Virus record (IMG/VR): IMGVR_UViG_3300050034_000187
Span: 7,866 to 71,865 of that record
DNA: 64,000 bases
Strand: one strand, 5' to 3'
DNA from: a virus
Position 1 is the stretch's first letter, and each line of letters begins with the position of its first letter. A program made the position numbers and the translations under genes. The notes below the pieces were generated by a model. The model did no database searches. It saw nothing but the letters and a program-made list of their open reading frames with translations, and was not told the origin of the DNA. Of the stretch, positions 18,652 through 63,517 are shown piece after piece.

Positions 18652-18788
18652 AGAAGAGTGACAGGAAACCCGTAAAGATCTATACGAAAAACATGTCGCA
18701 CCTAGTTGTCTATGATAATTTACTACACAACATATAGTGCTTTTAATATAACCAGCCCATAGCTTAAAATGATACTCGTCCAAAATAT
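18652..18788. repeat. Dispersed intergenic repeat, copy 1
   Basis: 18658-18754 identical (97 bp) to 30128-30224; shared ATACTCGTCCAAAATAT tail. Confidence 0.97.
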
Positions 18789-18813
18789 CATAAATACGAG
18801 AGGAGTTTATATT

Positions 18814-19566
18814 ATGAGTGCAGATTTAAAATCTCTTCGTCAGAAAGTTTTTGATTATTGCAAATTAATTTTGGGTGAGGGGATGGTAGATGTAGAAGCA
18901 GATCCTATTCATTATGAAACTATGTTGGATCGATCTATTGAAGTATTTCGTCAAAGATCAAGTGCCGCAGTTGAAGAAGGGTTTGCATTTTTACAATTGC
19001 ACGAAGATGAACAAATTTATACTCTGCCAGCAAATATAAATGTTGTAGCAAAAATCTATAGAAGAGCGGTGGGTGATTTTAATACGGGTAGTATGATTGA
19101 ACCATTTTCTCAGGCAACAATTTCTACTATGTTACTTAATGCAGGAAGAACGGGTTCATTGACATCTTATGAATTGTTTAAGGATTATCAATTTCAAGTA
19201 GATAGAATGTTTGGCGGGCAATTAGATTTTAATTTCAATGCTGAAACTCATAAGCTTACTATTTTTAGAAAGCCAGCAGGAAATATTGAAATTGCTGCCT
19301 TGCAATGCTATGCATATCGCGGAGAAGATCAATTATTAACTAATCCAAAAACATTATCATTTATAAAAGAATATACCCATGCTCTTATTCTAGAATCTAT
19401 TGGGCAAGCAAGAGAAAAATATTCATCTGTTATTAGTCCAACTGGCGGAACTACTTTAAATGGTGCTGCTCTAAAAACTCAAGCTGCTGAACTTAAAAAA
19501 ACATTATTAGAACAAATTACTTTATATCACTTTGGCGAAACCCCATTGGGATTCATTCTCGGTTAA
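18814..19566 (+). CDS. Neck/head-completion protein (T4 gp13-like)
   Basis: Start MSADL with SD; DYCKLILGEGMVDVE...FRQRSSAAVEE...GQAREKYS...GGTTLNGAALK. Confidence 0.68.
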   Translation: MSADLKSLRQKVFDYCKLILGEGMVDVEADPIHYETMLDRSIEVFRQRSSAAVEEGFAFLQLHEDEQIYTLPANINVVAKIYRRAVGDFNTGSMIEPFSQATISTMLLNAGRTGSLTSYELFKDYQFQVDRMFGGQLDFNFNAETHKLTIFRKPAGNIEIAALQCYAYRGEDQLLTNPKTLSFIKEYTHALILESIGQAREKYSSVISPTGGTTLNGAALKTQAAELKKTLLEQITLYHFGETPLGFILG

Positions 19567-19595
19567 TTGACAAATACTTAAATAAATGATATACT
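19567..19595 (+). promoter_or_regulatory. sigma70-type promoter for the dNMP kinase
   Basis: TTGACA-17-TATACT. Confidence 0.85.
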
Positions 19596-19614
19596 ATCAA
19601 TGGAGAAAATATAA

Positions 19615-20265
19615 ATGAGTATAATTGCAGTATCAGGTTTTATTGGATCAGGCAAGGGATTTTTTTCGGATTATTTACAAAGTACTTATAAATTTAAACA
19701 TATATCATTTGCCGAGTCATTAAAGAAAAGTATTTCTGAAATTTTTGGATGGGATTACGAACTTTTAAAGGGAACTACTTCAGAAAGTAGAGAATGGAGA
19801 GAACAAATTGATCCATGGTGGTCCAAGCGATTAGATATTCCCAATCTAACTCCTAGATTAGTTTTACAAATTGGTGGAACTGATTTATGGAGAAATGGAT
19901 TTCATCAAGACATTTGGATTGCTTCCTTGGAACGAAAATTACAATCAATGTCTAATGATAATATTGTAATTGATGATTGCCGCTTCCCAAATGAATTCAA
20001 AACATTACATTCTATTGGTGCTACCATTGTAAAAATAACCAGAGGGAATAATCCAGAATGGTATAATACCGCATTCAATGAATTATCTTGGATAGAAGAA
20101 CGGGGTTATGAAACTGGTTGGGAAAGTCCTATGCAAAGAAAATATCCAAATATCCATTACTCAGAATGGGCTTGGATTACTCAACACTTTGATAAAGAAC
20201 TTTATAATAATGGAAACAAAGATGAATTTATTAACACCATTGATGAATTCATGAAAACTTTATAA
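19615..20265 (+). CDS. Deoxynucleoside monophosphate kinase (T4 gp1-like)
   Basis: SGFIGSGK P-loop, SFAESLK, TPRLVLQIGGTD, VIDDCRFPNE. Confidence 0.9.
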   Translation: MSIIAVSGFIGSGKGFFSDYLQSTYKFKHISFAESLKKSISEIFGWDYELLKGTTSESREWREQIDPWWSKRLDIPNLTPRLVLQIGGTDLWRNGFHQDIWIASLERKLQSMSNDNIVIDDCRFPNEFKTLHSIGATIVKITRGNNPEWYNTAFNELSWIEERGYETGWESPMQRKYPNIHYSEWAWITQHFDKELYNNGNKDEFINTIDEFMKTL

Positions 20266-21397
20266 TATTATGCAAAAATCTAGCTATATCAAAACAAATA
20301 TTTTTATTGGTATATTTTAATATTAATAATGGAATATGCTTATCTTCACAGAATGTATACTTGGAATTATCTCTATTCTTTGTTAATTTAAATTGCTCCT
20401 CACATTCTGTTTTATTTTTTCCAAACGATGGAATATAGTGCTGCCTTCCATTATATTCTATAGCACCAATTACTTTTTCATTATTCATAATAAGAAAATC
20501 AAAATGCAATGGTAATTTGTATCTGCAACCTTCGATGGTTTGCTGTTCGGAGAAAGCAATTTTGTACGAAGATAAAATATTTCTTACCGCCTCCTCTCCC
20601 TTTGAATTAACTTTGCAAATGGCACATCCATGTTTTCTCGTAATATGAATTGACGGCGACTGCAAAAACCATTTTTGGCAGTTTTTACAAAATATTTTCA
20701 TCTTCGTGGTCATATTAATAAAAGTTGATTCATCATATTCATACTTATCACCATGTATTTCTTTGGCACAATACATAACTTCTTTAAATGTTTTATTTTT
20801 CCCGGCACAATATGGACACCCACTTTTTTGATTAATATGATCTGCTGGATTTTGAGAAAAAGTCTTATGGCACCTATTGCAATATAACTCCACGGGAGTA
20901 TGATTATTTTTATATATAACATTGGAATAATCATACTTATTTTCATGAATGCATTTTGCTTTTAAAATAAATTCTTCCCGAGTTGATTTATAATTTCCCA
21001 CACATTTTATACAGCCTTTTCCAGCACTAATATGATTAGATGGGGTTTGATGCAAAACATATCCACAAGTATTGCAAATTATAATTACCGGCGAATTCAT
21101 ATTAACATATTCAACTTGAGAATAATCATATTTATTTCCATGAATCGCTTGCGCCTCTATTAAGAAATCATACAATGATTTCTGCTGTAATTTCCGCATA
21201 GAAATCATACCGCACTGATAACATCCACATCCTTTTAAATGATTAGTTGGTATTTGCTCAAACATTCCATGAATAGGACATATAATTTTTATTTTATTTT
21301 TATTTCCGACATATTTTAATAAACTATAATCATACTTATTTCCATGAATAATGATTGCTTCTGTTATAAATTTTTCTTGCGTCTTCTTGTGCCCCAT
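20249..21397 (-). CDS. Free-standing homing endonuclease (Zn-ribbon repeats plus PD-(D/E)XK)
   Basis: HGNKYDYS repeats; HFDF...IEYNGRQHY. Confidence 0.85.
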   Translation of the reverse strand: MGHKKTQEKFITEAIIIHGNKYDYSLLKYVGNKNKIKIICPIHGMFEQIPTNHLKGCGCYQCGMISMRKLQQKSLYDFLIEAQAIHGNKYDYSQVEYVNMNSPVIIICNTCGYVLHQTPSNHISAGKGCIKCVGNYKSTREEFILKAKCIHENKYDYSNVIYKNNHTPVELYCNRCHKTFSQNPADHINQKSGCPYCAGKNKTFKEVMYCAKEIHGDKYEYDESTFINMTTKMKIFCKNCQKWFLQSPSIHITRKHGCAICKVNSKGEEAVRNILSSYKIAFSEQQTIEGCRYKLPLHFDFLIMNNEKVIGAIEYNGRQHYIPSFGKNKTECEEQFKLTKNRDNSKYTFCEDKHIPLLILKYTNKNICFDIARFLHNIIKFS

Positions 21398-21474
21398 GGT
21401 TCTCCTTATCTACCCCATATTTAGGGTATTAGATTAAATACCTATAGCGAAATATTCTATAGGAGATATAATCT

Positions 21475-24400
21475 ATGTCAACAACTTTACTTAGTCCGAG
21501 TGTAGAAGTAACCGTCGCAGATAATAGCGCTTACACGAGTTCTGGAACTGGAACAGTACCATTTATTTTAATTGCAACAACAGAAGATAAACTTAATACA
21601 AGTAATGTAACAGCAGCATATACCACCAGTGCTAATGCTGGATCATTATTTGAAATAACTAGTCAGAGAGAATTGGTATCATATTTTGGTCAGCCAAATT
21701 TCTTAACTTCAGATGGAACTCCAGTTAATGGTTCTGAACAAAATGAATATGGTCTAATGACGGCTTATACCTGTTTGGGATTAAGTGACCAAGCATATAT
21801 TATGAGAGCCAATATTGATCTTGATTCATTATCTGGTTCGACCACTCCCCCAACGCAAGATGCAGCAAATGGAACTATTTGGTTGAATACCTCAAAATCA
21901 TCTTGGGGATTGCTACAATGGAGCGCCGCTTCACAAGATTTTTCTACAATTAAATCAACTAACACTTCTGGCAATGCAAAATTATGGATTATTGATTCAT
22001 CTGATGAAACTGATGGAGATACCAGCGCAACCTATGGTAGCTATTATAAACCATCTGCTACTATTGGAAAAACCGGCGATTATGCTATTGTCACAGTTAA
22101 TTCAAGTGACTTAGTTTGGTATATGGGCTATGCTGGAGTATGGAATCTAGTTGGAAGTGATAGTTGGCAATCTTCTCTTCCTACTGCAACAGGAAATGTT
22201 ACAGTCAATACAACTTCATCTATTTCTGGTATTGTTACCATTAATGGATCAAATGTTACTTTAACAAATGCCAATTTATCAACTATTGTATCTGACATTA
22301 ATGCTGCTGCAATTGCTGGTGTTGGAGCATATGCTAATGGTTCTAGATTATCATTAACTGCTAATGCATTAGCTGCCAATAGCGCAATCGTTCTTGGAGC
22401 CACTACAAACGCAGCAATTGGCATTCCCGCAGCCACCTATTATGCTCCTGCTTATACTGCTAGCACATTTACAAATGTGCCAGAATGGCTAACTACCGAT
22501 GCATACCCTGCACCAACTGGCTCAGTCTGGTATAATTTAAGTAATAAAAATGATGGCGCAAATATTGTAATTGAAACATTTAATTCTACTTCAAATGTAT
22601 GGACTTTAGATACAGTCACCGTTGCTAAAAATGATGCTGCTGCAATTTATGCACTCGACCCAGATAATGGTGGCGCAAATATTTCTAACGGAGCATTTTA
22701 TTTAGAAACCGGAACTTATGCAAATGTATGCTCTTCTATTTTGTATGAATGGGATGATGCCGGTAATGCCAGTATTACAGGTACTATTGCAAATCCAACT
22801 CTTGCTAACGGAACTAATACATTAACTATTAATGCATATGCTCCCGGATATTCAGATTTTCTTGGAAATTCAGTAGTATCTTTCCAAGGACCCTCTGTTG
22901 CAAACTTAGTAACTGCAATCAATACACTTGGAATATCTGGATTAACTGCTGGTATTACTTCTTCCGGTTATACTTATATTGAAAATACATATGGTAGCAC
23001 TTTTTATCTATATGATGGAACAAATACTCCATTAGCTGCTTGTGGCATGGATTTAACATCTATCTATCATAAAGTTTCAAATTGGGTTGCTCCAACATAT
23101 GTTCAAGGAAATACTACTCCAACCTCTGAACCAACTGATGGATCTATTTGGTATTATGATGATGAAACAGTTGCAGATATTTTAATTAATACTGGTACAG
23201 CATGGGCATCTTACCGTACAGTATCGTCAGATGCTAGAGGTTTTGATCTAACTGCAACCGATATTGCAGGTCCAATTGCAAGTGCTTCTACTCCTACTAC
23301 ACAATCCAATGGTAATGCATTGGTTGCCGGTGATCTATGGATGAATACTTCCGATCTAGCCTCTCTTCCTAGCATTTATCGCTATGATGGCAGTGCATGG
23401 TCGCAGATTACCAATAGCGATCATACTTCAACTTCCGGTATTGTTTTTGCAGATGCTCGTTGGTCTGCTTATGGAAATGTTGATCCCGGTGCAAGTACTC
23501 TTCCAGCAATTTCAGAAATGCTAGTTGCTTCTCCAATTGTTCTAGATTCAGATGCACCAAGTTATGCATCCTATCCTCGCGGGACTCTCCTATTCAATAC
23601 CCGTAGAAGTGGCATGAATGTAAAGAAATTTACTGATAATGCTATTAGTGATGGAGATTATACCAATACATGGGTATCTGATAGTGGAAATGATGAAAGT
23701 GGTATTGCATATCTCGGAAGTGCTGCTCAACGTAGATTAGTTGTTAAAGCAATGATTGCTGCATTAGAAGATTCGGAAGAATTGCAAGACGAATATTATG
23801 ATTTTAATTTGATGTGTTGCCCCGGGTATCCAGAAGTTTTATCTACCATGGTAACTATCAATGAAGATCGTAGTTATTCAGCTTTTATTGTTACAGATAC
23901 TCCGATGACTCTAGCTCCTGATACTCAAACTCTTGCAGACTGGGCAGGAAATACAAATGATGCAACTACCGATGGTATTAATGGCCTAGTTACAAATAGT
24001 GCCTATGCTGGAATATATTATCCTGCCGGTCTAACAACTGATCTATCAGGTAATGATATTATTGTTCCTGCTTCTCATATGGCATTACCTACTATCATTA
24101 GTAGCGATGCTTCAAGCTATGTTTGGTTTGCTCCAGCAGGTCCTTCTAGAGGCTTGGTTACTTCAGTTTCTTCAGTTGGCTATATTGATGCCCAAACCGG
24201 AGACTACATAACTAATAGCATCTCTAAGAGCCTACAAGATGTTCTTTATCCATTGAATGTTAATTCCGTTGTTAATTCAAAAACATATGGAATTGAAATC
24301 AATGGTCAAAAAACTCTATATGGTCAATCAACTGCATTGGATCGTATCAATGTTGCTAGATTGGTGATTTATATGAAAAAGAAATTGGATAGTATTGGTG

Positions 24401-24651
24401 CCGCTTATCTGTTTGAACAAAATGATGCCACTACTAGAAAAAATCTCGCTTATCAAATTACCGAATTCTTAGCCACTCTCGTAACTGATCGTGCAATCTC
24501 GGATTACGTTGTGGAATGCGATGCCGATAATAATTTAACTGCTACAATCGATGCAAATGAGCTAATCGCAGACGTGGGAGTAGTCCCGCTAAAAAGTGCA
24601 GAATTCGTTTATATTAACCTCAATTTAGATTCAACTATTTCAACTTCATAA
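21475..24651 (+). CDS. gp18: Contractile tail sheath protein with large central insertion
   Basis: LLSPSVEV, ITSQRELVSYFGQPNF, EQNEYGL; C-terminal CCPGYPE, WFAPAG.RG, GQKTL, ALDRINVARL, YLFEQND. Confidence 0.93.
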   Translation: MSTTLLSPSVEVTVADNSAYTSSGTGTVPFILIATTEDKLNTSNVTAAYTTSANAGSLFEITSQRELVSYFGQPNFLTSDGTPVNGSEQNEYGLMTAYTCLGLSDQAYIMRANIDLDSLSGSTTPPTQDAANGTIWLNTSKSSWGLLQWSAASQDFSTIKSTNTSGNAKLWIIDSSDETDGDTSATYGSYYKPSATIGKTGDYAIVTVNSSDLVWYMGYAGVWNLVGSDSWQSSLPTATGNVTVNTTSSISGIVTINGSNVTLTNANLSTIVSDINAAAIAGVGAYANGSRLSLTANALAANSAIVLGATTNAAIGIPAATYYAPAYTASTFTNVPEWLTTDAYPAPTGSVWYNLSNKNDGANIVIETFNSTSNVWTLDTVTVAKNDAAAIYALDPDNGGANISNGAFYLETGTYANVCSSILYEWDDAGNASITGTIANPTLANGTNTLTINAYAPGYSDFLGNSVVSFQGPSVANLVTAINTLGISGLTAGITSSGYTYIENTYGSTFYLYDGTNTPLAACGMDLTSIYHKVSNWVAPTYVQGNTTPTSEPTDGSIWYYDDETVADILINTGTAWASYRTVSSDARGFDLTATDIAGPIASASTPTTQSNGNALVAGDLWMNTSDLASLPSIYRYDGSAWSQITNSDHTSTSGIVFADARWSAYGNVDPGASTLPAISEMLVASPIVLDSDAPSYASYPRGTLLFNTRRSGMNVKKFTDNAISDGDYTNTWVSDSGNDESGIAYLGSAAQRRLVVKAMIAALEDSEELQDEYYDFNLMCCPGYPEVLSTMVTINEDRSYSAFIVTDTPMTLAPDTQTLADWAGNTNDATTDGINGLVTNSAYAGIYYPAGLTTDLSGNDIIVPASHMALPTIISSDASSYVWFAPAGPSRGLVTSVSSVGYIDAQTGDYITNSISKSLQDVLYPLNVNSVVNSKTYGIEINGQKTLYGQSTALDRINVARLVIYMKKKLDSIGAAYLFEQNDATTRKNLAYQITEFLATLVTDRAISDYVVECDADNNLTATIDANELIADVGVVPLKSAEFVYINLNLDSTISTS

Positions 24652-24667
24652 TAGTTAAATCACACTC

Positions 24668-24832: not shown

Positions 24833-25771
24833 ATGTTATCAGATATTGAGTATTTTAATATTCTTGAACAAATTAACCTATCATATTTCGTGAGAGAAAT
24901 TAAAGCCAATGATGACCTACTTGAATGGATTAATAACAAGTCAGATCCAAAAATAGATAATTTACCATATAGTTTCGCAATAAGACTTCATACAAAGTGT
25001 TATCTTATTTTGCATCCAGAAGAATCTATTTATTGTGAATGCGGAAAACCACGAAAATATGAAGGAAAATTCAATAGATTAACCTGCGATGTGCATTGCC
25101 CTATAAAAGCAAAAATCGCTCGAAATACCTGCCTAAGAAAATATAATGTTTCTAGTCCAATGTTATTGCAAGAAGTAAAAGATAAACAAAAAGCTTCTAT
25201 TAAAAATCATTATGGTGTGGAGTATCCAATGCAATGCAAGGAACTTCGAGATAAAGCAGCAAAAACCAACTTAACGAAATATGGAACAAAATTTGCCACA
25301 CAATCAGAACAAGTGAAAGAAAAAACTATAAAAACTAATATGGAAAGATATCATGTTAAAAGTACTGCACAAGTTCCAGAATTTCGAGAAGCACAAAAGA
25401 AAACATTATGGGAGCATTATCATGTAGAATCCCCGTTGCAATCAAAAGAATTAATGGAAAAATTCAAAAATACAAATATTGAAAGATATAATACTCCTTG
25501 GGCAATTACATCAAAGGAAGTACAAGATAAATCCAATAAAACAAAAATGGATCGATACCACACTACTTCGATGTCATCTGTTCCAGAAATATGTGCTAAG
25601 CAAGTTGCTACCAGAAAAGAAACAATGTTGAAGAAATGTGGGAAAGAGCACGAAAGCCAAGTTCACATAAGTGATGAAAGCTATGAAGTTTTAAATGATC
25701 CTATAAAATTTTCAGAGATGCTAATTAAATATGGTAAACCAATAATGGCACAATTATTGGGCGTTGAATGA
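24833..25771 (+). pseudogene. Homing endonuclease N-terminal repeat region, lacking the nuclease domain
   Basis: KY.V..P.Q..E.K.K...TN..RY repeats typical of phage HEG N-termini; ends abruptly overlapping the converging ORF. Confidence 0.55.
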
Positions 25772-26093
25772 AATCTCCATGAATAGGACAAATAATTATA
25801 ATTGTATACTCGGTTGTTTGATATTTTGTTTTTGAATAGTCATATTTATTTTTATGTTTAATATTAGCAAGTTCAATAAATTCCGAAGTGGTATATGAAT
25901 ATTTTCCGCCACATTTCAGACATCCTCTACCTCTCAAATGACTTGCGGGAATTTGTTTAAACATTTCATGTATAGGACATATAATTTGTACTTTTGTTTT
26001 TGCATCAATGTAGTTAACTAATGAATAATTATAAGTAGTTCCATGCCTTTCTATTGCTTGACCTATAAATTCTGCTGTTGTTTTATTTTTCAT
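25725..26093 (-). pseudogene. Truncated Zn-ribbon homing endonuclease (two repeats, no nuclease)
   Basis: N-terminus parallels 20249-21397 (ICPIH..F.Q.P..HL.G.GC) then ends in an unrelated tail. Confidence 0.65.
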
Positions 26094-26107
26094 ATCTTCC
26101 TATATTC

Positions 26108-26167
26108 ATTTTAACATAGAATTGGTGCAAAGTCAAGGTTGACTTTGCACCAATTAGAGTTTATGAT
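26108..26167. promoter_or_regulatory. 17-bp-arm hairpin (26120-26155) acting as terminator and supplying -35 boxes of two divergent sigma70-type promoters
   Basis: Minus strand TTGACT-17-TAAAAT; plus strand TTGACT(26139)-17-TATGAT(26162). Confidence 0.7.
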
Positions 26168-26170
26168 TAA

Positions 26171-26803
26171 TTAGATTGAAGAAGTACTAGATGCCCGAGT
26201 AATAGTATCACCAATACCCGTATCTTGCAAAGCATTATCGTAGCAAACTGTCAATTTAATTGTAACTGGATCACCTGAATTTTTATAATCAAGCGAGTCA
26301 TAGGCGGCGGATTTAATCCAACATCCGCCGAGAGTAAAAGTAGTTAATACCGTTGGATCTTCGCCAGTACCAGCGGTATTACCACCGTCTAATTCTTCAA
26401 TTTCAGTTACGAATTTGAATGCTCCCGGCGCGGTTGCACTAGCTTGGTTAGCAAAATCAAATTGTTGCTGCATTTGCTCACCAACCAATTCTTGAACTGC
26501 ACCATCCATAGAATCTCTAATAGTAATTGTAACATCAGACCAAGTTGGTTTACCCGGATATTTAATAACTGAGTTATAAACATCAATGGTCTTTTGATCG
26601 AATTGTGCAGTTGGCTTGGTGCAATCCATTATCTGCTTTGTTAATGCGATGGAACTGGTAGATGTACCAAATCCAGTAAATAATACCCTGAATCGATATT
26701 TTAATCGTGGGAAAATAAGACCCGATGCACTCGTTGAATATCCTAAATCCGTTAAGGGGACCGAATACGCAGACAACGAGGAAACTGAGGTAACTGAAGA
26801 CAT
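26171..26803 (-). CDS. gp19: Tail tube protein (T4 gp19 family)
   Basis: PRLKYRFRV, YNSVIKYPGKPTWSDVTITIRD, LGGCWI...LDY...ITLTV-like motifs; TAAATA and SD upstream. Confidence 0.88.
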   Translation of the reverse strand: MSSVTSVSSLSAYSVPLTDLGYSTSASGLIFPRLKYRFRVLFTGFGTSTSSIALTKQIMDCTKPTAQFDQKTIDVYNSVIKYPGKPTWSDVTITIRDSMDGAVQELVGEQMQQQFDFANQASATAPGAFKFVTEIEELDGGNTAGTGEDPTVLTTFTLGGCWIKSAAYDSLDYKNSGDPVTIKLTVCYDNALQDTGIGDTITRASSTSSI

Positions 26804-26855
26804 ATTAATATAACTCCTTGATGATATTTATCGAAAATATAAAAATTTCAAGAAA

Positions 26856-28454
26856 TCAAGTTAATTTCAATGAGTATCTATTTTTACCACTATCCCAGAT
26901 TTTATAATATCCTTTCTTTTTATTTTTATTATATTCACTTTTCAAACATCGCGTGTGATTTTTTGTATAAGAAAAATCTGGTTTAATTTCTTTTTCAAAC
27001 GTAAATCCGAATTGTTCATATAACTCACCAATTTCCAGCCTATTATCGGCAAAGGAAGTTATTTTGTTATATCCAAGTTTTAATAATGAATTTTTAATAA
27101 ATGAAATAGCATCAAATCCAAATGAATTATTTTTAGCAATACTTACTAACATAGCAGTCTTTCCCGTCTTTTGAAAAATCCAAGCACCTACTATTTCATT
27201 ATTATATTTTGCTATAATATTAATACTTCCAGATGTACAACCAACAATATTGTTGCAATTTATATAATTTTTAACGTCTTTGGGAGTTTTTCCTTTGATT
27301 ACTTTATAACTAGGAGTTATTATAGTTTTCTCGCATGGAGCTAGTATTTCTTTCAAATAAGATTTTACGATCTCTTGTTTATTTTCCCATTCATCTCCGT
27401 AAATTTGAATTAATCTATCATCTTTGATTTTAGCCAATAGGTATTTTTCATGATCTCTTAGTGGAGTATCATTATTGTATTTTTCAGAATGCCAAACCAA
27501 TCCGTGAAATTCTATAGCTAACTTATGGCTTGGAATGTAAATATCATATTCTTTTAGTGACGGCGGATTAATTCTATAACCGAATATAGCATCTGGTGTA
27601 AATTTCTTAATAAAATTGAATATTTCCCCAGCAGGAGATTCTAAAGTTCTTCCTGATTGAGTACATCCGCATGATTTTGATTTTCCACAAGTTACATCAC
27701 CGAATGCTGGAGTAGATATATTTCCACAATCGCAAATGAATTTATATTTTTCTTTGCACCAAAAACTCCAGATATCTGGTAATTCTTGGTTTGGATCTAA
27801 TGTTAGCTTTCCCCATTTCTGTGATAACCAATATTCCTTAGATTCATCATTGCAATGATGGCATGACTTGGTTGGTTTTGATTGCGGAGTAGGTTTTATT
27901 GTTACTTTACAAAAGGGAAGTGTTGTTAAATTACCGCAGTCACATATAAATTTATATTTATTATGGCAAGCCTGTGACCATTCATCGGGTAACTTCTGAT
28001 TTTTATCAAGAATCAATTTTCCCCATTTTTGAGATAACCAATATTCCTTGGAAATTTCCGTACAATGTCTGCACGAAGATATTCCCGCATGCATAACATT
28101 ATCAAACACAGGAGTAAAATTTCTTCCACACGGACAAGTAAATAGAAATTTTTTATTGCAGCCATTCGGCCAAGCATCTGGTAATGGCTGATCCTTTTTT
28201 AATTTAATTTCACCAAAATCATAATTCAACCAATATTCTTTTGGTTTATCATTACAATGCCCGCAGGTCTTTGTATTATATTTTATTTTGGTAACATTCT
28301 CAAATTTAATTACTGCTGTTTTTCCACAGTCGCATATAAATTTAAATTTATTATTACATCCCTTGCTCCATTCATTCGGTAATTCTTGGTTTGGATCTAA
28401 CTTTAATTTTCCCCATTTTTGAGATAGCCAATATTCTTTTAATAAGTTTTTCAT
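26856..28454 (-). CDS. Homing endonuclease-like protein: four KEYWLSQKWGKL Zn-finger repeats, PD-(D/E)XK nuclease and C-terminal domain
   Basis: ~73-aa repeats with CDCG/C..C; YDIYIPSHKLAIEFHGLVWHSE; promoter TTGAAT-17-TAAGGT with ATG 7 nt downstream. Confidence 0.8.
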   Translation of the reverse strand: MKNLLKEYWLSQKWGKLKLDPNQELPNEWSKGCNNKFKFICDCGKTAVIKFENVTKIKYNTKTCGHCNDKPKEYWLNYDFGEIKLKKDQPLPDAWPNGCNKKFLFTCPCGRNFTPVFDNVMHAGISSCRHCTEISKEYWLSQKWGKLILDKNQKLPDEWSQACHNKYKFICDCGNLTTLPFCKVTIKPTPQSKPTKSCHHCNDESKEYWLSQKWGKLTLDPNQELPDIWSFWCKEKYKFICDCGNISTPAFGDVTCGKSKSCGCTQSGRTLESPAGEIFNFIKKFTPDAIFGYRINPPSLKEYDIYIPSHKLAIEFHGLVWHSEKYNNDTPLRDHEKYLLAKIKDDRLIQIYGDEWENKQEIVKSYLKEILAPCEKTIITPSYKVIKGKTPKDVKNYINCNNIVGCTSGSINIIAKYNNEIVGAWIFQKTGKTAMLVSIAKNNSFGFDAISFIKNSLLKLGYNKITSFADNRLEIGELYEQFGFTFEKEIKPDFSYTKNHTRCLKSEYNKNKKKGYYKIWDSGKNRYSLKLT

Positions 28455-28508
28455 AATCATAACCTTATCACATATTAAATGAACATTCAAATGTACATAA
28501 ATAGTATT

Positions 28509-30121: not shown

Positions 30122-30273
30122 AGAAGCGTGACAGGAAACCCGTAAAGATCTATACGAAAAACATGTCGCACCTAGTTGTCTATGATAATTTACTACACAA
30201 CATATAGTGCTTTTAATATAACCACCCATAATCTTTTTATATAATACTCGTCCAAAATATTATTTTCTTGACA
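30122..30273. repeat. Dispersed intergenic repeat, copy 2 (ends in a -35 box)
   Basis: Direct repeat of copy 1; 30128-30273 is a 146-bp inverted repeat of 63369-63514 with 3 mismatches. Confidence 0.97.
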
Positions 30274-30296
30274 TTATTATTCAATCATGAGAATAT
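30268..30296 (+). promoter_or_regulatory. sigma70-type promoter, probably leaderless
   Basis: TTGACA-17-GAATAT with extended TG; ATG 7 nt downstream. Confidence 0.65.
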
Positions 30297-30302
30297 GGAT
30301 AT

Positions 30303-30767
30303 ATGCAAACGTTCTTGCCGTATTCAGATTTTGTAAAGAGTGCTCGAATATTGGATCGAGCTAGATTAGGAAAGCAGAGAGTTGAATGTTTTCAATTGCT
30401 TTGTGTAAACCTTGGATTGAAGAAAATCAGAAATAATGGTATTGCATCGTTAATTGAGCACGAAGCGAAAGGATGGAAAAATCATCCCGCAGCGTTGATG
30501 TGGAAGGGATGGGAGAGTGGGTTGCTTTCTTATATGGAAGAATGTAATATTGAATGGAAGAATCGCGGATATAATGGTGTAGAATCTGAGTGGAATTTTT
30601 CTGCAATTCGTGATAGAATAACTCCAAGTTCTGAAAAGATTCCAGCATGGTATGGAAGAGAATCTTTTCATAGGGCGCATCAATCAAATTTAATTCGGAA
30701 AATGCCAGAATATTATGGGCCACTATTTCCGAATGTACCAAATAATCTAGAATATGAATGGAGATAA
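30303..30767 (+). CDS. Pyrimidine-dimer DNA glycosylase family (DenV-related, MSMEG_6728-like)
   Basis: MQTFLPY.DF..SA..LD..RLGKQRVE, W.NHPA..MW.G, HQSNL.RK.PEYY. Confidence 0.8.
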   Translation: MQTFLPYSDFVKSARILDRARLGKQRVECFQLLCVNLGLKKIRNNGIASLIEHEAKGWKNHPAALMWKGWESGLLSYMEECNIEWKNRGYNGVESEWNFSAIRDRITPSSEKIPAWYGRESFHRAHQSNLIRKMPEYYGPLFPNVPNNLEYEWR

Positions 30768-57719: not shown

Positions 57720-58124
57720 TTAAATCAGTTTGTGAAGTTTCTCTTCATCAAATTCAATTTTCTCCACCAAAAAATGATCATTTCCAATCACACCAGCATC
57801 TGTACGATTCTTCCAAGTATAAGCGGTAATTTCCACGATACTCCAGTTTCGTGCGCCATGGCCATAGAACTCAACAATAGGAACACCAATCTTCTTTGCT
57901 GCAAACTGATTCGCCCAATCGACGGCCTCAATATAATCAACGTTGGCAGGAATTGCAAGATGCATCACCTTCTGGAAGCCACGCCCCTCACAAAGGTCCG
58001 GGGAATATCTCAATGAAAAAAACTTCATATTCGCATACCTCTGATCAGCCGCAATGGCTGCATCTTCGGTTGTATGCTCATTTCCTCGATCATCAATATA
58101 AACAGTGCGAGTTTCTTTTTGCAT
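57720..58124 (-). CDS. Hypothetical protein
   Basis: Promoter TTGACA-16-TATTAT; SD AGGAG before MQKET. Confidence 0.55.
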   Translation of the reverse strand: MQKETRTVYIDDRGNEHTTEDAAIAADQRYANMKFFSLRYSPDLCEGRGFQKVMHLAIPANVDYIEAVDWANQFAAKKIGVPIVEFYGHGARNWSIVEITAYTWKNRTDAGVIGNDHFLVEKIEFDEEKLHKLI

Positions 58125-58207
58125 ATCAATCTCCTTCACTTAATAATACCACAATTGCAATTATTGTCAATGATTAAGTCTTGATAATTTGCGCATCACT
58201 GCCAAGA

Positions 58208-58483
58208 TTATCCTTTGTCCATTGTGCCCCACGCCTTGAGCACAGCTATATCACCCGAGCAGTACGGACAATCTTCCATAAAATCTCCGCATCGGATCGT
58301 GCCGGTTCCACCACACGATTTGCAAGAAAGCTGATGCTTTGAAATAACTTTTCCCATCTCATCTGACAGTTTCGTTAGGCGCTCTATATCAGCACGATAC
58401 TGATCTCGGTCTCTGGTCTGCTCGGATAGTACCAGATTATATGCAATTATGTAAGCATCGAGCAGATCATCTTTGTTTGTCAT
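58208..58483 (-). CDS. Hypothetical protein with DnaJ-type Zn finger
   Basis: CKSCGGTG...CPYCSG; promoter TTGACA-17-TAATAT. Confidence 0.55.
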   Translation of the reverse strand: MTNKDDLLDAYIIAYNLVLSEQTRDRDQYRADIERLTKLSDEMGKVISKHQLSCKSCGGTGTIRCGDFMEDCPYCSGDIAVLKAWGTMDKG

Positions 58484-58542
58484 TCCCGACTCCTGTAAAC
58501 TGCTAACAGATACATATTAACAATTTACGGGAGTAATGTCAA

Positions 58543-59112
58543 CTACCACAAGTACTGATCTTCCTCACAGTAGCACGACTGTTCAAACTGTTCAAGCTCT
58601 TCCTGCTCTTCCTGCTTCTCTAGTTCCTCGCGTCTACGATCTTCTTCATAGAGTTTATCCGCTTCATCGATTTCGTCTTCAATGTAGTCACTGAAGTAAT
58701 AATCTTCGATGCTATCCAATGCATCACGTCCATACCAGTCTGGAGTAGTATCAACCAAGCCAGAATTAAAATCGAGGTCATATCCATACCAATCATTCAC
58801 AACCGCAGAAAGCTCCTTCTTGAGAATGGCACGATCCCGGTGCCGAAGAACGCGCCGCATAGTACGGCGACAATCAGACTTCATGCAGCCGCGATTATGA
58901 TGATTGATAGAACCATCCTCACGAATTTCATTGTATGCAAGAGTGCCAAGGCAGGTCTTCCGGCCCTCTGCTCCCAAATCAGAGACATCAGCAATGCACA
59001 GCGGCATCAAACGAATATTCTCATAGGGACGAGTCTTGTAAGAATGATGGTAAACAGCGGTTGTATTCTTACTCTGCTTGTCATAAATCAAATGAGCGCA
59101 ATTCATATTCAT
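58543..59112 (-). CDS. Hypothetical protein with acidic tail
   Basis: Promoter TTGACT-17-TATTAT (59164-59136). Confidence 0.55.
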   Translation of the reverse strand: MNMNCAHLIYDKQSKNTTAVYHHSYKTRPYENIRLMPLCIADVSDLGAEGRKTCLGTLAYNEIREDGSINHHNRGCMKSDCRRTMRRVLRHRDRAILKKELSAVVNDWYGYDLDFNSGLVDTTPDWYGRDALDSIEDYYFSDYIEDEIDEADKLYEEDRRREELEKQEEQEELEQFEQSCYCEEDQYLW

Positions 59113-59167
59113 TGTCCTTTCGTATCAACAAATATATAATATCAAAGTTGGAAGAAAAAGTCAACAA

Positions 59168-59347
59168 TTAAAGCACAGCATCCTGCTCTTCCCTAATTTC
59201 AATCTCTTCCTCCAATTGCTGGAGTTCCTCTTCCATATCATTAATTTCCCAATCGTTAACATCAGGATCACGCCGCATATAGATGAGTTGCGAATATAAG
59301 CGATTATATCGCTCGGACATTTCATAAAGATCGGCATCAAATTCCAT
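59168..59347 (-). CDS. Small acidic coiled-coil protein (paralog B)
   Basis: Not in the ORF track; MEFDADLYEMSERYNRLYSQLIYMRRDPDV...; paralog of 60439-60609. Confidence 0.65.
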   Translation of the reverse strand: MEFDADLYEMSERYNRLYSQLIYMRRDPDVNDWEINDMEEELQQLEEEIEIREEQDAVL

Positions 59348-59356
59348 AATTCCCCC

Positions 59357-59671
59357 TTAAAACAACGAAGTATACAATCCAGTTTCAGATGTGAAAATCT
59401 CTTGTAATTGATCAAAAAACACATCCTTGTGAATTTCTACCAATTCGTTCTTCCCACCATTTTTGGTGAACCGAACATTACGAAACTCCATATCGTACAG
59501 ATCACGTTCATTCAAGGTAATCTCAACATAGGTAATCTTCTTGGCAGCATGCGGTACTTTGAATGACAACGAATTAATACTAGAATGAGAAACAAAGTTT
59601 TTCGCACCAGTCATTGCAATGAACTTACGGCCGCCAAGCTGTTCGAAAATCGTATGCGCAATGTCATTCAT
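59357..59671 (-). CDS. Phage hypothetical protein (A)
   Basis: I.EQLGG..F..MTGAK pattern; promoter TTGACA-17-TATTAT (59728-59700). Confidence 0.65.
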   Translation of the reverse strand: MNDIAHTIFEQLGGRKFIAMTGAKNFVSHSSINSLSFKVPHAAKKITYVEITLNERDLYDMEFRNVRFTKNGGKNELVEIHKDVFFDQLQEIFTSETGLYTSLF

Positions 59672-59756
59672 TTGATGCTCTCCTTGTGACTACTTTTATA
59701 TAATAGCAATTTTACTATTATATGTCAAGAAAAATATCCGTTTTTTTGCTGATGGG

Positions 59757-59822
59757 AAGTCCAATCGTAGACCCCGGCACCGATGATGACTTATTTCCGT
59801 GCTGCCAGAAATTTCTGATTGC
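59757..59822 (-). repeat. Duplicated 3' end of gene 60778-61212
   Basis: CAATCGTAGACCCCGG.ACCGATGATGACTTATTTCCGTGCTGCCAGAA occurs at ~59762 and ~60801. Confidence 0.9.
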
Positions 59823-59837
59823 AAATATTGTCAATAA

Positions 59838-60371
59838 TTAATTATTGACAATTTCCAGTCCTACTCCGATACTCAGCAAATACTTCTTTTGCTTATCGGT
59901 AAGTGCAATGCGACCGATCTCATTGCCGGTATTATCGGAAATAACCAACGAACTCCCCACCGAAAAAACAAGCTGCGACTTATCGTTAACTGCGTGCTTT
60001 GCCGCCATAACATCATTTTCGGTTACTCGCTTGCCGTTAAGGTAGTAGTACTTACTTCCATCGGGGTATTCAATCGCAGGACCATCTGTGCGGTGCAGAT
60101 TGCCGTTAAGGTAGTAGTACTTACTTCCGTCGGCATATTCGATAGCAGGACCATCTTCGCGGTGCAGCTTGCCGTTAAGGAAATATTCCTTAGTTCCATC
60201 GGCATATTCGATAGCAGGACCATCTTCGCGGTGCAGCTTGCCGTTAAGATAATAGCGAGTAGTTCCATCGGCATATTCGATAGCAGGACCATCTTCGCGG
60301 TGCAGCTTGCCGTTAAGATAATAGCGAGTAGTTCCATCGGCATCAGTTACAATCTTAATTTCCTTTTCCAT
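59838..60371 (-). CDS. MORN-like LHREDGPA repeat protein
   Basis: ~4.6 tandem 23-aa (69-bp) repeats; promoter TTGACA-17-TATTAT (60435-60407). Confidence 0.8.
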   Translation of the reverse strand: MEKEIKIVTDADGTTRYYLNGKLHREDGPAIEYADGTTRYYLNGKLHREDGPAIEYADGTKEYFLNGKLHREDGPAIEYADGSKYYYLNGNLHRTDGPAIEYPDGSKYYYLNGKRVTENDVMAAKHAVNDKSQLVFSVGSSLVISDNTGNEIGRIALTDKQKKYLLSIGVGLEIVNN

Positions 60372-60438
60372 TTGATTTTTCCCTTTCTGTTTTTGACTAC
60401 TCTTAAATAATAGCAAAGAATTGGATGGTTGTCAACGA

Positions 60439-60609
60439 TTAAATTACATCATAATTTTCTTCCATACTTTCGATTTCTTCATCAAGTTGCCGTAGTTCTT
60501 CTTCCATATCATCAATTTCCAAATCAGTTACATCAGGATCGCGACGCATATAGATAAGCTGTGAATTCAGCCGATTATATCGTTCAGTCAATTCATCAAT
60601 TGGTTTCAT
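60439..60609 (-). CDS. Small acidic coiled-coil protein (paralog B')
   Basis: ERYNRLNSQLIYMRRDPDV. Confidence 0.65.
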   Translation of the reverse strand: MKPIDELTERYNRLNSQLIYMRRDPDVTDLEIDDMEEELRQLDEEIESMEENYDVI

Positions 60610-60619
60610 AATTTCCTCC

Positions 60620-60770
60620 TTAAAACAATGAAGTATACAATTTGGTTTCCGATGTGAAAATATCTTGTAGCTGATCAAAAAATATATCCGTGTGAATTTC
60701 CACTAGTTAATTTTTCATACCAATTTTGGTATTCGAACATTGTGGAATTCTATGTCGTACAAATCAGCAT
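60620..60770 (-). pseudogene. Degraded 3' half copy of gene A (59357-59671)
   Basis: DLYDIEFHNVR then frameshift/stop, then LVEIHTDIFFDQLQDIFTSETKLYTSLF*. Confidence 0.75.
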
Positions 60771-60777
60771 ATTACTC

Positions 60778-61212
60778 CTATTTTTTGCTGATAGGGAGTA
60801 CAATCGTAGACCCCGGAACCGATGATGACTTATTTCCGTGCTGCCAGAAGTTGCGAATTGCATATGGTGCATCGTATGCCGAATCTACGAGTGGCAACCA
60901 CCGTGCGATACGCGGGTGCCGGGGGGCTACAAACTTTCTGATAGCCCACCACTCTACCGCGACGACCGCAATACCATACGCCTCATCTGCTGCACCATGT
61001 TGAGCAATCACTTCCGGGATGTTGTCCTCGTGTGCCCCATTACGGTTGCAATAATCCGTACTCGCGGCATCGAGAGATCGAACGCTCAACGAAGTCCACT
61101 GCTGCCATGTTGGGTGCGAGAAGCTAATCGATGGTTTCGGTGCATCCGGTAGCTGTGCTATGGTTGGTACACACAGCGCGAACATAATCACAATGTTTTT
61201 CATCACTTCCAT
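60778..61212 (-). CDS. Exported/membrane protein with signal peptide followed by AQLPDAPKP
   Basis: SD AAGGAG; promoter TTGACA-17-TATTAT (61281-61253); GC-rich. Confidence 0.6.
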   Translation of the reverse strand: MEVMKNIVIMFALCVPTIAQLPDAPKPSISFSHPTWQQWTSLSVRSLDAASTDYCNRNGAHEDNIPEVIAQHGAADEAYGIAVVAVEWWAIRKFVAPRHPRIARWLPLVDSAYDAPYAIRNFWQHGNKSSSVPGSTIVLPISKK

Positions 61213-61283
61213 CGTAATGCTCCTTTTCGGTTGGTAATTTTCCAACAAATAGATAATAGTAATCTTTCTTCCGAATGTCAAGA

Positions 61284-61311
61284 AAAATCCCCCAGATATC
61301 TGGGGGATTTT
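61284..61311. terminator. Terminator abutting the next promoter
   Basis: 28-bp perfect palindrome. Confidence 0.8.
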
Positions 61312-61312
61312 G

Positions 61313-62485
61313 TTATAGCCAATTAAATTTAGATGCATGGACGTGTCGGTTTAAAATAACCATATCCCCGTCTGGATTTTTATAAACGATTTTATCATTC
61401 AGTGGATCAAACGTTTGAATATCGGCATAGGTAATATGAATCTGCCCAGATCGTTCACTGCTTCCGTTTCGTTTGGAGGTAAATGATTTCTTGAGAGTAG
61501 AGCAAGGGGCCTCTCCATAGACATCCTCACAATCTCCTCCTGCAAACAAAGGAACAGTAGAATTATTCTCACTATCAAAATCAAAAGTATATTCAATTGA
61601 AAGAGGATCACCGCGCCATGTTACATGAGAAGAACATAATTCATAGGTTGGAATGTCTCCATAAATATGACTGATCAATTTTACATCATAGGTGATACCG
61701 CCGGAGAATTCGATTTTGGTATTCAGCATTCTAATTACTTTGGAAATAGGTTCATTATATCTATTAATTTCCTCAACAATTGCCTTCATCATATCAAAAT
61801 TAAAAGATGAAAACATCAATGAATACTTACAGATTTCATCAATATGCTCTGGATACTTTAATTTATCTTCGCAATAATCATGAATGAAAGTTTGATCCAA
61901 TCCTTCATATTCCATCATGTAATATATACGTCCGGGACGATTCTTCATATTAGAATCAATTCGATACTTATTATTACAAGTGATCAAATACAAATGCTTT
62001 GCTGAAAATACTCCATCAAATAAAGTAAGAATGGCTTCTTGTCCATCATCGTCATAGGTCTTTTCAAATTCATCAAAAATAATCACAGATGGCTGTTCAA
62101 TTGATTGAATGAAGGTGTTAAATTCTGGTCCAGAAAAATTAGTATCAATAATGATAGTTGGAATACCCTTCTTTAAAAGAGTAATACTGATTAATTTCGA
62201 AAGTAAAGTTTTTCCAGAACCTTTTTCTCCACATAAAAGGACCCCAGTTGAATTTTCTCGATCTTCAAAAGTAGAAATAATTCGATCAGAATCCTGTTGC
62301 GAATCTCCATAAATTTTTGATGGAACTTCAAATGAATCCACTACTTCTAAATAATATTCTCCCGTATTAGGATTTCGCTTAACAACATAGGTTCTTGCTG
62401 GAAGGACCTCATGAAGATCAAGAGATTCTTTTGACGCAATCCGATAACTATTTCCCGACTTCATGAAAACAAACTTTTCTGACAT
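61313..62485 (-). CDS. AAA+ ATPase
   Basis: LLCGEKGSGKT, IIFDEFEK, LITCN, NRPGRI. Confidence 0.88.
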   Translation of the reverse strand: MSEKFVFMKSGNSYRIASKESLDLHEVLPARTYVVKRNPNTGEYYLEVVDSFEVPSKIYGDSQQDSDRIISTFEDRENSTGVLLCGEKGSGKTLLSKLISITLLKKGIPTIIIDTNFSGPEFNTFIQSIEQPSVIIFDEFEKTYDDDGQEAILTLFDGVFSAKHLYLITCNNKYRIDSNMKNRPGRIYYMMEYEGLDQTFIHDYCEDKLKYPEHIDEICKYSLMFSSFNFDMMKAIVEEINRYNEPISKVIRMLNTKIEFSGGITYDVKLISHIYGDIPTYELCSSHVTWRGDPLSIEYTFDFDSENNSTVPLFAGGDCEDVYGEAPCSTLKKSFTSKRNGSSERSGQIHITYADIQTFDPLNDKIVYKNPDGDMVILNRHVHASKFNWL

Positions 62486-62552
62486 ATTTCTCCTCCATGG
62501 ATTTTAAATAATATTTTAAAAATACAATGTTTTTCATTTATTGGATTGGATC

Positions 62553-62894
62553 TTATTCATCAAAAATAATTCCTCGTTCCTTTTCAATTAAAAAATCTTT
62601 TTCTCGAAGAATAATATTTTTCCATGTATCATTGTGCAAGGAAACGTCGATACCTTCCAATAGAAGAATTCCATTCCTAATATCATGAATTTCATCAAGT
62701 CGGGATTGTGTAAACCTAGCAGCGTCTTCCCACGTATAAAATTCATAAGTATCAAAATCTTCTGAATTGAAACTATCACCAATAAAAATTATATCACGAT
62801 ATAACCGAACATGCTCCCAATGAGACTTTACAAATTTCTCATAGTCTTCCTCGGTATATATCACTGCCTTAACTTCGTTAATCATATTAATCAT
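62553..62894 (-). CDS. Hypothetical protein
   Basis: Operonic ORF. Confidence 0.5.
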   Translation of the reverse strand: MINMINEVKAVIYTEEDYEKFVKSHWEHVRLYRDIIFIGDSFNSEDFDTYEFYTWEDAARFTQSRLDEIHDIRNGILLLEGIDVSLHNDTWKNIILREKDFLIEKERGIIFDE

Positions 62895-63321
62895 CCTTCC
62901 TTACATCATCGATAAAATGCATAATTGAAACGGGAGAGCAATCATTAAAAGTAGCAATAACTTTCCCATCTTTAAGAACCTCAACGCCATCCATTCCATG
63001 AGTCCTCGTTTTGTAAACAGAAATTGGTTTATCGAGATAATTCTTGATGTTCTTCATACCGCTGTCAGAAATCTTAAAATTACAAATTTTAAGAATAGCA
63101 GCTTGCATTCGATCAAGCGGATAGGTATCTTCCTTAATAATATTCTTCATTTCTTTTTCAGCAAGCTCTTGAATAGTACTTTGAAGCTTCTTAATAATTT
63201 GATCTTTCTGCAACAACTCCCTTTTAAGTATTGATCGATCCCTTGCCACTTCATTTGGAACCCGAAGTAAAAAATCAGAAGAAACCGTTTCATCCGCCGC
63301 TTCCAAATCAGAATACATCAT
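62887..63321 (-). CDS. Hypothetical protein
   Basis: SD GGGAGA before MMYSD. Confidence 0.5.
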   Translation of the reverse strand: MMYSDLEAADETVSSDFLLRVPNEVARDRSILKRELLQKDQIIKKLQSTIQELAEKEMKNIIKEDTYPLDRMQAAILKICNFKISDSGMKNIKNYLDKPISVYKTRTHGMDGVEVLKDGKVIATFNDCSPVSIMHFIDDVRKDD

Positions 63322-63345
63322 CGTTCTCTCCTTATTCACTTTTCA

Positions 63346-63374
63346 AGTATATCAAACAGATATTATCTTGTCAA
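63346..63374 (-). promoter_or_regulatory. sigma70-type promoter whose -35 box lies in repeat copy 3
   Basis: TTGACA-17-TATACT. Confidence 0.85.
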
Positions 63375-63517
63375 GAAAATAATATTTTGGACGAATATCA
63401 TATAAAAAGATTATGGGTGGTTATATTAAAAGCACTATATCTTGTGTAGTAAATTATCATAGACAACTAGGTGCGACATGTTTTTCGTATAGATCTTTAC
63501 GGGTTTCCTGTCACTCT
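63369..63517. repeat. Dispersed intergenic repeat, copy 3 (inverted)
   Basis: Reverse complement of 30128-30273 with 3 substitutions. Confidence 0.97.

Follow-up and report, generated by a model that had tools for sequence, protein, structure and literature searches.

Correia elements of Neisseria are promoter-affecting MITEs. They carry terminal inverted repeats of 26 bp and TA duplications, and the sites they occupy vary from strain to strain. The homologous regions (hrs) of baculoviruses resemble one another far more closely inside one genome than across related genomes, and their positions are largely conserved. These hrs, of which SpltNPV-II has seven, serve both as enhancers and as replication origins (PMC4535591). 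PeSL cassettes of T4-type phages contain by definition a strong sigma-70 early promoter and a GC-rich terminator hairpin (PMC2839356, PMC4122927), and in the T4-related Campylobacter group II phages CP21, CP220 and CPt10 repeats are linked to module inversion and occur as single units elsewhere in the genome (PMC4546147).

The element analysed here belongs to a repeat family of an uncultured T4-like peat phage (the focal phage) and was compared with each of these systems. It resembles Correia elements in length (these have about 100–155 bp), in its many near-identical intergenic copies and in its closeness to promoters, and differs from them in being positionally stable and devoid of terminal repeats or duplications. 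Like hrs, it is present as several dispersed AT-rich non-coding copies per genome, arranged around an imperfect palindrome (PMC4535591); identities are 87–98% among the copies of the focal phage and 79–97% among those of a relative, versus 47–53% between the two genomes, and four positions are orthologous. Whereas hrs are tandem arrays of 3–8 units of ~64 bp that are bound by IE-1 in an insect virus, the phage units are single, polar and placed beside a promoter; the two are not related in sequence. PeSL cassettes are likewise repeated and intergenic, lie in T4-like genomes upstream of co-oriented genes, and have copies that recombine, and copies of the phage element also serve as exchange sites (see below); in contrast to PeSL cassettes, the unit contains neither a sigma-70-type promoter nor a stable terminator stem-loop, and it adjoins late as well as early promoters. 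Ordinary PeSL-like hairpin-plus-promoter sites are present elsewhere in the focal phage. The Campylobacter group II phages and the focal phage are both T4-related and have repeats (units of 72–86 bp between modules in CP21, CP220 and CPt10) together with many transposase and homing-endonuclease genes (PMC4546147). The repeats of CP21, CP220 and CPt10 differ in that they form long bipartite arrays with up to 18 units per arm (PMC4546147) and have no sequence match to the phage element in the phage collection searched, and promoter-side positional conservation is not described for them.

The repeat family and its flanking promoters

At least seven copies, spanning at least 259 kb, were found in the focal phage, five of them on a 196-kb contig (three in the window, meaning the whole stretch of 64,000 nucleotides that was analysed) and two on a sister contig; the sister contig joins the 196-kb contig, the first 127 bases of each (presumably the word size of the assembler) being exact reverse complements. 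A sequence-only reading of the window had reported three copies over 45 kb; these are real, but they understate the family, and the count across the genome and in relatives that it had proposed gave seven copies in the focal phage and four in the relative. The repeat unit is ~135–140 bp long and non-coding, with a GC content of 30–35% over the seven copies, and it is intergenic in 7/7 cases. At all seven copies the downstream gene is co-oriented with the element, and the gap from the copy to a late or early promoter (at one copy to a ribosome site) is 5–30 nt (n=7). Adjoining promoters sit outside the unit and are of the late type at three of the seven copies; at copy c4 the gene follows the element with no promoter in between. 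Copies and adjoining promoters in the window are:

18653..18787, plus strand: copy 1 (3' sub-type A), flanked by two late promoters arranged back to back
30123..30259, plus strand: copy 2 (3' sub-type B), separating the stop codon of a 176-aa gene in the tail region from the early promoter of a denV-like gene
63383..63520, minus strand: copy 3 (3' sub-type B), with a leftward early promoter on one side and a rightward late-like promoter on the other
18789..18796, plus strand: late promoter box CATAAATA of a gp15-like gene, start codon at 18814
18638..18645, minus strand: late promoter box GATAAATA of a leftward 729-aa fibre-like gene, start codon at 18622
30268..30296, plus strand: early promoter TTGACA-17-GAATAT in a leaderless layout, the ATG at 30303 following after 6 nt
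63346..63374, minus strand: early promoter TTGACA-17-TATACT with TG, of a 150-aa gene
63530..63537, plus strand: late-like box TGTAAATA, followed after 5 nt by the ATG at 63543

The rightward gene behind TGTAAATA is listed as 673 aa, counted from an upstream GTG at 63471. The early promoter at copy 2 scored 17 bits (rank 43 of 391,420) with a weight matrix built from 33 early promoters of the same phage. Sequence comparison confirmed the 97-bp core described earlier, which is identical in copies 1 and 2 and has one mismatch in the inverted copy 3. The promoters that had been named at one end of each copy are also present (late at copy 1, and the two TTGACA promoters listed above at copies 2 and 3), and copies 1 and 3 are indeed flanked by divergent genes.

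Since repeats can be misplaced in a metagenome assembly, from which this sequence comes, the sequence-only reading had named an assembly artefact as the case against it. Contigs of DNA run X2, which is independent (different sample, different study), cross from unique flank into the element at copy 1 as well as at copy 2, and depth at the element is ~3–5 times the single-copy level. The longest identical stretch among copies (~100 nt) is below the 127-base contig overlap, each copy has its own variants and unique flanks, and the same layout occurs in a second phage, so that an artefact can for practical purposes be dismissed.

Two parts of the unit are referred to below, a 42-bp module at one end (module P) and a promoter-proximal block (block 3):

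18658..18699, plus strand: module P of copy 1
30128-30169, plus strand: module P of copy 2
63514-63473, minus strand: module P of copy 3
18751..18787, plus strand: block 3 of copy 1
30221-30259, plus strand: block 3 of copy 2
63421-63383, minus strand: block 3 of copy 3

Module P consists of 6-nt inverted arms (GTGACA ... TGTCGC) with a 30-nt interior between them, and block 3 of type B reads ACCACCCAT ... TATGAT ... TCGTC. The variable sites of the seven copies are mosaic, several site pairs occurring in all four combinations, which indicates that exchange between copies is ongoing. Element boundaries are ragged, with pairs of copies sharing flanks of differing length that overlap the promoter consensus. 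A conserved pentamer in the left flank is linked to an internal variant and is thus part of the element rather than of a target site.

Comparison with a distant relative

A relative phage (IMG/VR sample 3300050162) has four copies of its own version of the element, all of them at positions orthologous to c2, c5, g1a and g1b of the focal phage and with the same promoter class at each (its copy r8 is the positional orthologue of copy 2), despite an identity of only 44–65% between the flanking proteins of the two phages. Four of five comparable positions are thus occupied in the relative, and the fifth, the copy 1 site, is an empty spacer with 17 nt between two late boxes. Between the genomes the element is 47–53% identical, with the exception of the 36-nt block 3, which reaches ~82–86% (27/33 aligned positions, local alignment z 5.7) and is the only part with significant sequence likeness; coding DNA of the two genomes matches at 64–72%, and few short stretches are as well conserved between them as block 3. 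Likeness over the first 93 nt is not significant (p ~0.09), so that homology of this part is read from the layout. The relative's copies have a GC content of 33–36% in a genome of 42–44% GC, which means that AT-richness has been retained. Three of these copies are mutually 92–97% identical, and the fourth is only 79–80% identical to them because its interior is flipped: its 29-nt interior matches the reverse complement at 27/29 positions versus 12/29 in direct orientation, and with the interior left out identity rises to 90–93% (77–80 of 86 positions). The direction of block 3 is unchanged in this copy. Module P is doubled in two of the relative's copies and single throughout the focal phage. 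Across an alignment of 11 sequences from both phages, the arms of module P are the only consensus pairing; both partners of one pair have changed (A-T to T-A), and in another pair a single partner has.

Further searches were carried out for the element outside these two phages. G002 and G003, relatives at similar distance, have no element, the c5 and gp15 spacers included. Exact-word scans of viral contigs found the family only in the focal phage and in the 3300050162 phage, metagenome contigs yielded no further copies, blastn against a phage collection gave no match, and searches for closer relatives recovered only the focal phage itself and the 53% relative. A 21-mer match in an Omnitrophota genome lies inside a gene, without further likeness, and was attributed to chance. 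Copies coincide with the borders that separate conserved from unique gene blocks no more often than by chance (p ~0.07). At the empty sites (copy 1 in the relative, c5 in G002) back-to-back late boxes are 17–23 nt apart; the absence of the element at sites in the relative, G002 and G003 shows that the adjoining promoters work without it, and its function cannot be essential to them.

Such a family could consist of functionless or selfish repeats, that is, intergenic DNA copied beside promoters by ectopic repair or recombination on the short promoter consensus and homogenized by recombination, whose only effect would be to provide portable homology for rearrangements, as PeSL cassettes do. Ragged boundaries with shared flanks in the promoter consensus, mosaic copies, the empty copy 1 and c5 sites, the placement of every copy where insertion breaks nothing and the lack of any internal feature above chance are what this explanation predicts. 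Neutral 135-bp spacers should not, however, last so long in genomes that are 92% coding, and it is hard to reconcile with neutrality that 4/4 of the relative's copies keep their positions beside such diverged neighbours, that block 3 is better conserved than the surrounding genes and that AT-richness persists in the GC-richer genome. A functionless repeat is accordingly regarded as rather unlikely, and the element, present in a distant relative in a version of its own at the same positions, is probably a functional DNA site rather than junk.

Tests for RNA, coding and transposable elements

The element might act as RNA, either as a small RNA or through a start site and conserved 5' leader in block 3. 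Block 3 of type B and of the relative's version contains a –10-like hexamer (CATAAT/CATGAT), c4 has no promoter of its own between element and gene, a contig of RNA-library run X7 extends from the element into the unique flank downstream of g1b, and RNA contigs cover positions inside copy 2, all of which would be compatible with a transcript; type A copies lack the hexamer, though, and co-directional copies would be read through from upstream anyway. Contigs of RNA run X8 leave the core uncovered, RNA contigs start at 18801 and end at 18628, near the predicted late starts flanking copy 1, and a further one starts at 30240 inside copy 2; these ends and uncovered parts come from the contigs of one study and were not counted for or against transcription. 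Runs with a small share were left aside in judging habitat.

Rfam gave no match at the gathering score for the window, nor at E up to 1 for four copies with flanks, and ARAGORN detected no tRNA or tmRNA. The covariation check that had been suggested for RNA structure gave no sign of a structured RNA, the consensus of the 11 sequences having one 5-bp stem (–3.3 kcal/mol). Neither strand folded better than its shuffles, whether as RNA or as DNA (z-scores +0.4 to –0.8), and no terminator-like site was found on the strand of the element. The palindromes AGATCT and ACATGT, the TGTC motifs and the weak hairpins that the sequence-only reading had offered as clues do occur, though not above chance: within a single copy, the best palindromes of 16 bp and 42 bp have p ~0.08 versus dinucleotide shuffles, and sub-motifs of the element neither recur nor are enriched elsewhere in the genome. 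Among the motifs quoted, the sequence comparison with the relative lends support to one part alone, the outer inverted arms in the first 42 bp.

The best promoter site inside the unit scored –8.4 bits with the phage's own matrix, versus 14–41 bits for real promoters. This score also applies to a candidate promoter with a leaderless 14-codon ORF (GTGACA-17-TATACG-6-ATG), which is unusual by simple count and was rejected; four of the five single-base differences in this ORF are non-synonymous, and it was rejected as coding as well. A reverse-strand frame that is open through the unit in 4/7 copies has no start codon, all its variants are non-synonymous, and phmmer returned 0 matches among 1.84 billion proteins. 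A MotA-type middle promoter was rejected, no MotA domain being encoded in 259 kb and MotA-box-like words not being enriched between genes; the layout of T4 oriF/oriG-type origins (MotA-dependent middle promoter followed by an unwinding element) was not found in the element. Taken with the missing Rfam match, the shuffle-like folds and the low promoter score, this makes a function as RNA improbable.

Non-autonomous transposition (a MITE or PATE type mobilized by a phage transposase such as IS200/IS605 TnpA) is suggested by the two tnpA and five tnpB genes of the focal phage, which nothing connects with the element, by the fact that IS200/IS605-type movement requires no terminal inverted repeats or target duplications, neither of which was seen in the 7-copy alignment, and by the difference between the two phages at the copy 1 site. 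The ends of the resident IS are GC-rich hairpins that share nothing with the element, neither DNA strand of the element forms a comparable hairpin, its boundaries are not sharp, the left-flank pentamer is not a target site, and positions are stable over a large evolutionary distance. An IS200/IS605 MITE was rejected because the element ends are unrelated to the IS ends, and a transposable element of any such type is very improbable. Neither an Rfam family nor a MITE, both named beforehand as findings that would speak against a new element, was thus encountered.

Candidate function

Conserved position, concerted evolution and gains or losses at single sites together point to a selected cis-acting DNA site. 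The earlier proposal of a DNA-level site whose copies selection or gene conversion keeps alike gains support from the mosaic copies and from the four positions shared with so distant a relative; the functions named with it (replication origin, recombination site, enhancer, anchoring site) all remain candidates that the sequence evidence does not separate. The explanation that we favour, tentatively, is that the element is a cis-acting DNA module under selection in one clade of T4-like jumbo phages, most likely a candidate protein docking platform. Such a platform would be read by a sequence-specific DNA-binding protein, probably phage-encoded, and would have three parts: the 42-bp module, in which the 6-nt inverted arms would matter and the interior would not; an AT-rich middle; and the conserved 36-nt block, always facing the adjoining promoter. 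As judged from the alignment, arms that are kept through a two-sided change and around a flipped interior behave as expected of a symmetric binding site. Copies would be kept alike within a genome by gene conversion and would drift together between genomes, since one factor must read all of them. Protein binding, and with it an effect on promoter activity and/or replication initiation, is what we infer from this pattern. Block 3 and the promoter lie 9 to 31 nt apart depending on the copy, a spread that would be unusual for a classical activator site.

By analogy, the closest counterpart for a candidate origin, enhancer or boundary function would be the baculovirus hrs. It is conceivable, if doubtful, that the copies are fixed replication origins and/or clamp-loading or enhancer sites, each bound by one dedicated co-evolving phage protein. 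T4-type phage promoters are thought to need almost no upstream DNA and, to our knowledge, replication origins of T4-type phages are essentially unmapped outside T4 itself. If the origin or enhancer reading were true, phages would have a counterpart of baculovirus hrs, and the family would be the first multi-copy origin or enhancer system to be defined by sequence in a T4-type genome. In any case, a 135-bp module that holds its position next to promoters while neighbouring proteins diverge to ~50% identity is a testable candidate for a control element or origin. It also offers a clean natural example of a phage cis element that evolves in concert, and large rearrangements, such as one of the 33-kb block between copies 2 and 3, have ready substrates in its inverted and direct copies.

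Copies of the element and the genome that carries them

The near-identical core that the sequence-only reading had described at three places was borne out by a repeat finder and a three-way alignment, in which the three window copies had in common a unit of ~135 bp with the first 100 nt identical or different at one position:

Window 18653-18787, + strand: element copy 1
Window 30123-30259, + strand: element copy 2
Window 63383-63520, - strand: element copy 3

The IMG/VR contig of the window (G000; 195,761 bp, 34.6% GC) carried two further copies (c1 to c5 in all, with c1 and c2 being copies 1 and 2), and another contig from the same sample (G001; 63.7 kb) carried two more (g1a and g1b). The first 127 bases of G001, reverse-complemented, reproduced exactly the 127 at the start of G000, and one contig of a relative crossed the junction. 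The two contigs are therefore adjacent pieces of a single genome, at least 259 kb long, in which the count is seven and not three. No diverged further copies were found by profile search, and no parts of the element recurred elsewhere in the genome. Contigs from an independent DNA run extended from unique flanking sequence into copies 1 and 2, where depth was several times the single-copy level; the repeats are therefore real and not an artefact of assembly.

The phage was placed among distant T4-like myoviruses by its marker proteins (tail sheath, tail tube, gp15-type adaptor, dNMP kinase and endonuclease V). Its late promoters were TATAAATA-type boxes, frequently just 3-7 nt before ATG, and its early promoters were TTGACA-N17-TATTAT with an upstream TG, frequently 6 nt before ATG. 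Since many start codons follow the late box at 3-7 nt or the -10 of the early promoter at exactly 6 nt, a large share of the mRNAs is probably leaderless; such layouts were seen across the whole contig (e.g. window 30291-30305; G000 73394, 73937, 111550, 140477 and 152144). In the 259 kb of G000 and G001, nine 6-bp palindromes had zero occurrences (CAGCTG, CCGCGG, CCTAGG, CGATCG, CTCGAG, GAGCTC, GCCGGC, GGGCCC and GTCGAC; 4-19 expected each), GGATCC occurred once (35 expected), and 7 of the 24 AGATCT sites were those of the element copies. Other repeated sequences and mobile-type genes were as follows:

Window 3445-4600 (+), 10318-11213 (-), 20249-21397 (-) and 25725-28490 (-): family of genes resembling HNH-type homing endonucleases, in which a motif is repeated internally (repeat families D2-D4 and D6); one of them lies between the genes for dNMP kinase and tail sheath, where the relatives have none
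Window 59960-60373: about six 69-bp units in tandem, which together with several 74-169-bp duplications lie at 57.6-60.9 kb in an early-gene region
G000 118957-120475, 155473-157004, 74557-75846, 159500-160801 and 161225-162427, all outside the window: IS200/IS605 genes, with tnpA and tnpB paired twice and tnpB on its own three times; several are preceded by late promoters
G000 155.3-162.9 kb: IS-rich island of ~7.6 kb, for which contig G007 of the relative has no more than 716 nt
G000 103832-103950: 119-bp intergenic copy, 93% identical to the tnpB 3' end at 161240-161358, possibly a right end on its own or what is left of a guide RNA

Setting of the copies and identities ruled out

The element was intergenic in all seven copies, between divergent genes in four and co-directional genes in three, and in each of the latter it was oriented in the direction of the genes. 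Within 5-30 nt 3' of the element lay a late box (c1, c5, g1a) or an early promoter (c2, c3, g1b); at c4 its 3' end was directly followed by a ribosome site, the gene having no promoter of its own. Proteins flanking different copies were unrelated to one another. The 3' third existed in an A and a B sub-type, set apart by several substitutions and by small indels. Several pairs of variable sites showed all four combinations among the seven copies, so the copies exchange sequence, and a conserved pentamer at the left edge was linked to an internal variant, which makes it part of the element and not a target site.

No match to Rfam families or tRNA was obtained. A stable fold was ruled out for RNA and DNA on either strand, as were a terminator and a MotA-type middle promoter; nor is the element itself a promoter, scoring -8.4 bits on the phage's own promoter matrix, against 17 bits for the promoter adjoining copy 2. 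Coding was rejected (the sole open frame lacked a start codon, its variants were all non-synonymous, and there were 0 relatives among 1.84 billion proteins). The phage has 2 IS200/IS605 tnpA and 5 tnpB genes, and an origin from these was rejected since the GC-rich end hairpins of the resident IS share nothing with the element. The short palindromes once taken as clues occurred at chance level. An RNA role is nevertheless conceivable, as an RNA-library contig connects the element with the flank of g1b and the gene of c4 lacks its own promoter; sequence comparison gave no support for a structured or separately promoted RNA.

Counterparts in a related phage

A related phage (sample 3300050162; 42-44% GC) was found via the protein adjoining c5. 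The promoter-side end of its orthologous 204-nt spacer resembled the 3' part of the element (31/36 positions, one 4-nt gap, z 5.7 by local alignment), and a pattern derived from block 3, the promoter-proximal ~36 nt, matched three contigs of that sample, on which a 115-nt unit (33-36% GC) occurred in full four times. All four were at positions orthologous to ours, with an identical class of adjoining promoter within each pair:

r7, counterpart of c5: both flanks match (65% and 53% identity)
r8, counterpart of c2: behind the orthologues of our 176-aa and tail tube genes
r9a, counterpart of g1a: both flanks match (47% and 57% identity)
r9b, counterpart of g1b: upstream gene matches (44% identity)

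Five of our seven positions were covered by the relative's contigs; four were occupied, and the fifth, the copy 1 site, lacked the element and had two late boxes separated by 17 nt. Between these boxes a small GC-rich hairpin (GGGT-CGCA-ACCC) was noted (contig G008, about 12040-12060).

Identity was 87-98% among our copies and 92-97% among three of the relative's four, and only 47-53% between the two genomes. Block 3 matched at 27/33 aligned positions between genomes, exceeding their coding matches (64-72%), while the first 93 nt had the same layout and no significant sequence likeness (p about 0.09). In both phages the unit begins with a module (42 bp in ours) of 6-nt inverted arms enclosing a 29-30-nt interior; the joint alignment showed no consensus pairing other than that of the arms, in which one pair was changed on both sides. 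The module was doubled in two of the relative's copies. The interior of r9b was flipped (27/29 to the reverse complement) with the direction of block 3 unchanged, which explains its lower identity to the other copies (79-80% over the whole unit; 77-80 of 86 positions without the interior).

The main alternative is a functionless repeat, spread and homogenised through recombination, in the manner of the promoter-early stem-loop cassettes (PeSLs) of T4-type phages (PMC2839356, PMC4122927) or of the repeat regions in T4-related Campylobacter phages (PMC4546147). In favour of this alternative, the element has ragged boundaries and occupancy of the copy 1 site differs; the positional conservation weakens it. 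Classical PeSL-like sites, distinct from the element, were seen where a TTGACA early promoter immediately follows a GC-rich hairpin and its T run (window about 61250-61285, - strand, G000 69146; and G000 152144).

A candidate docking module

Two further relatives (G002 and G003; about 45-55% protein identity) had neither the element nor a comparable dispersed repeat. In the c5-orthologous spacer of G002, 23 nt separated two back-to-back late boxes, and at the gp15-type gene of G003 such boxes overlapped. As orthologous promoters work without the element, both in these relatives and at the empty counterpart of the copy 1 site, it cannot be essential to the adjoining promoters themselves. Neither neutral filler nor a mobile element that spread recently readily accounts for three points taken together: the element stayed in the same spacers while the proteins beside it diverged to about half identity, its copies were homogenised within genomes and diverged between them, and a conserved polar block beside the promoter is combined with a symmetric module whose interior may be flipped. 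On these grounds of sequence comparison the favoured, though tentative, reading of the element is a protein-docking DNA module that would affect adjoining promoters and/or replication. A protein would bind the copies (we infer both the binding and its effect), and a single factor would have to read all of them. The three points match how cis elements that one factor has to read at every copy are known to behave; the best described of these are the baculovirus homologous regions, which are enhancers and replication origins (PMC4535591).
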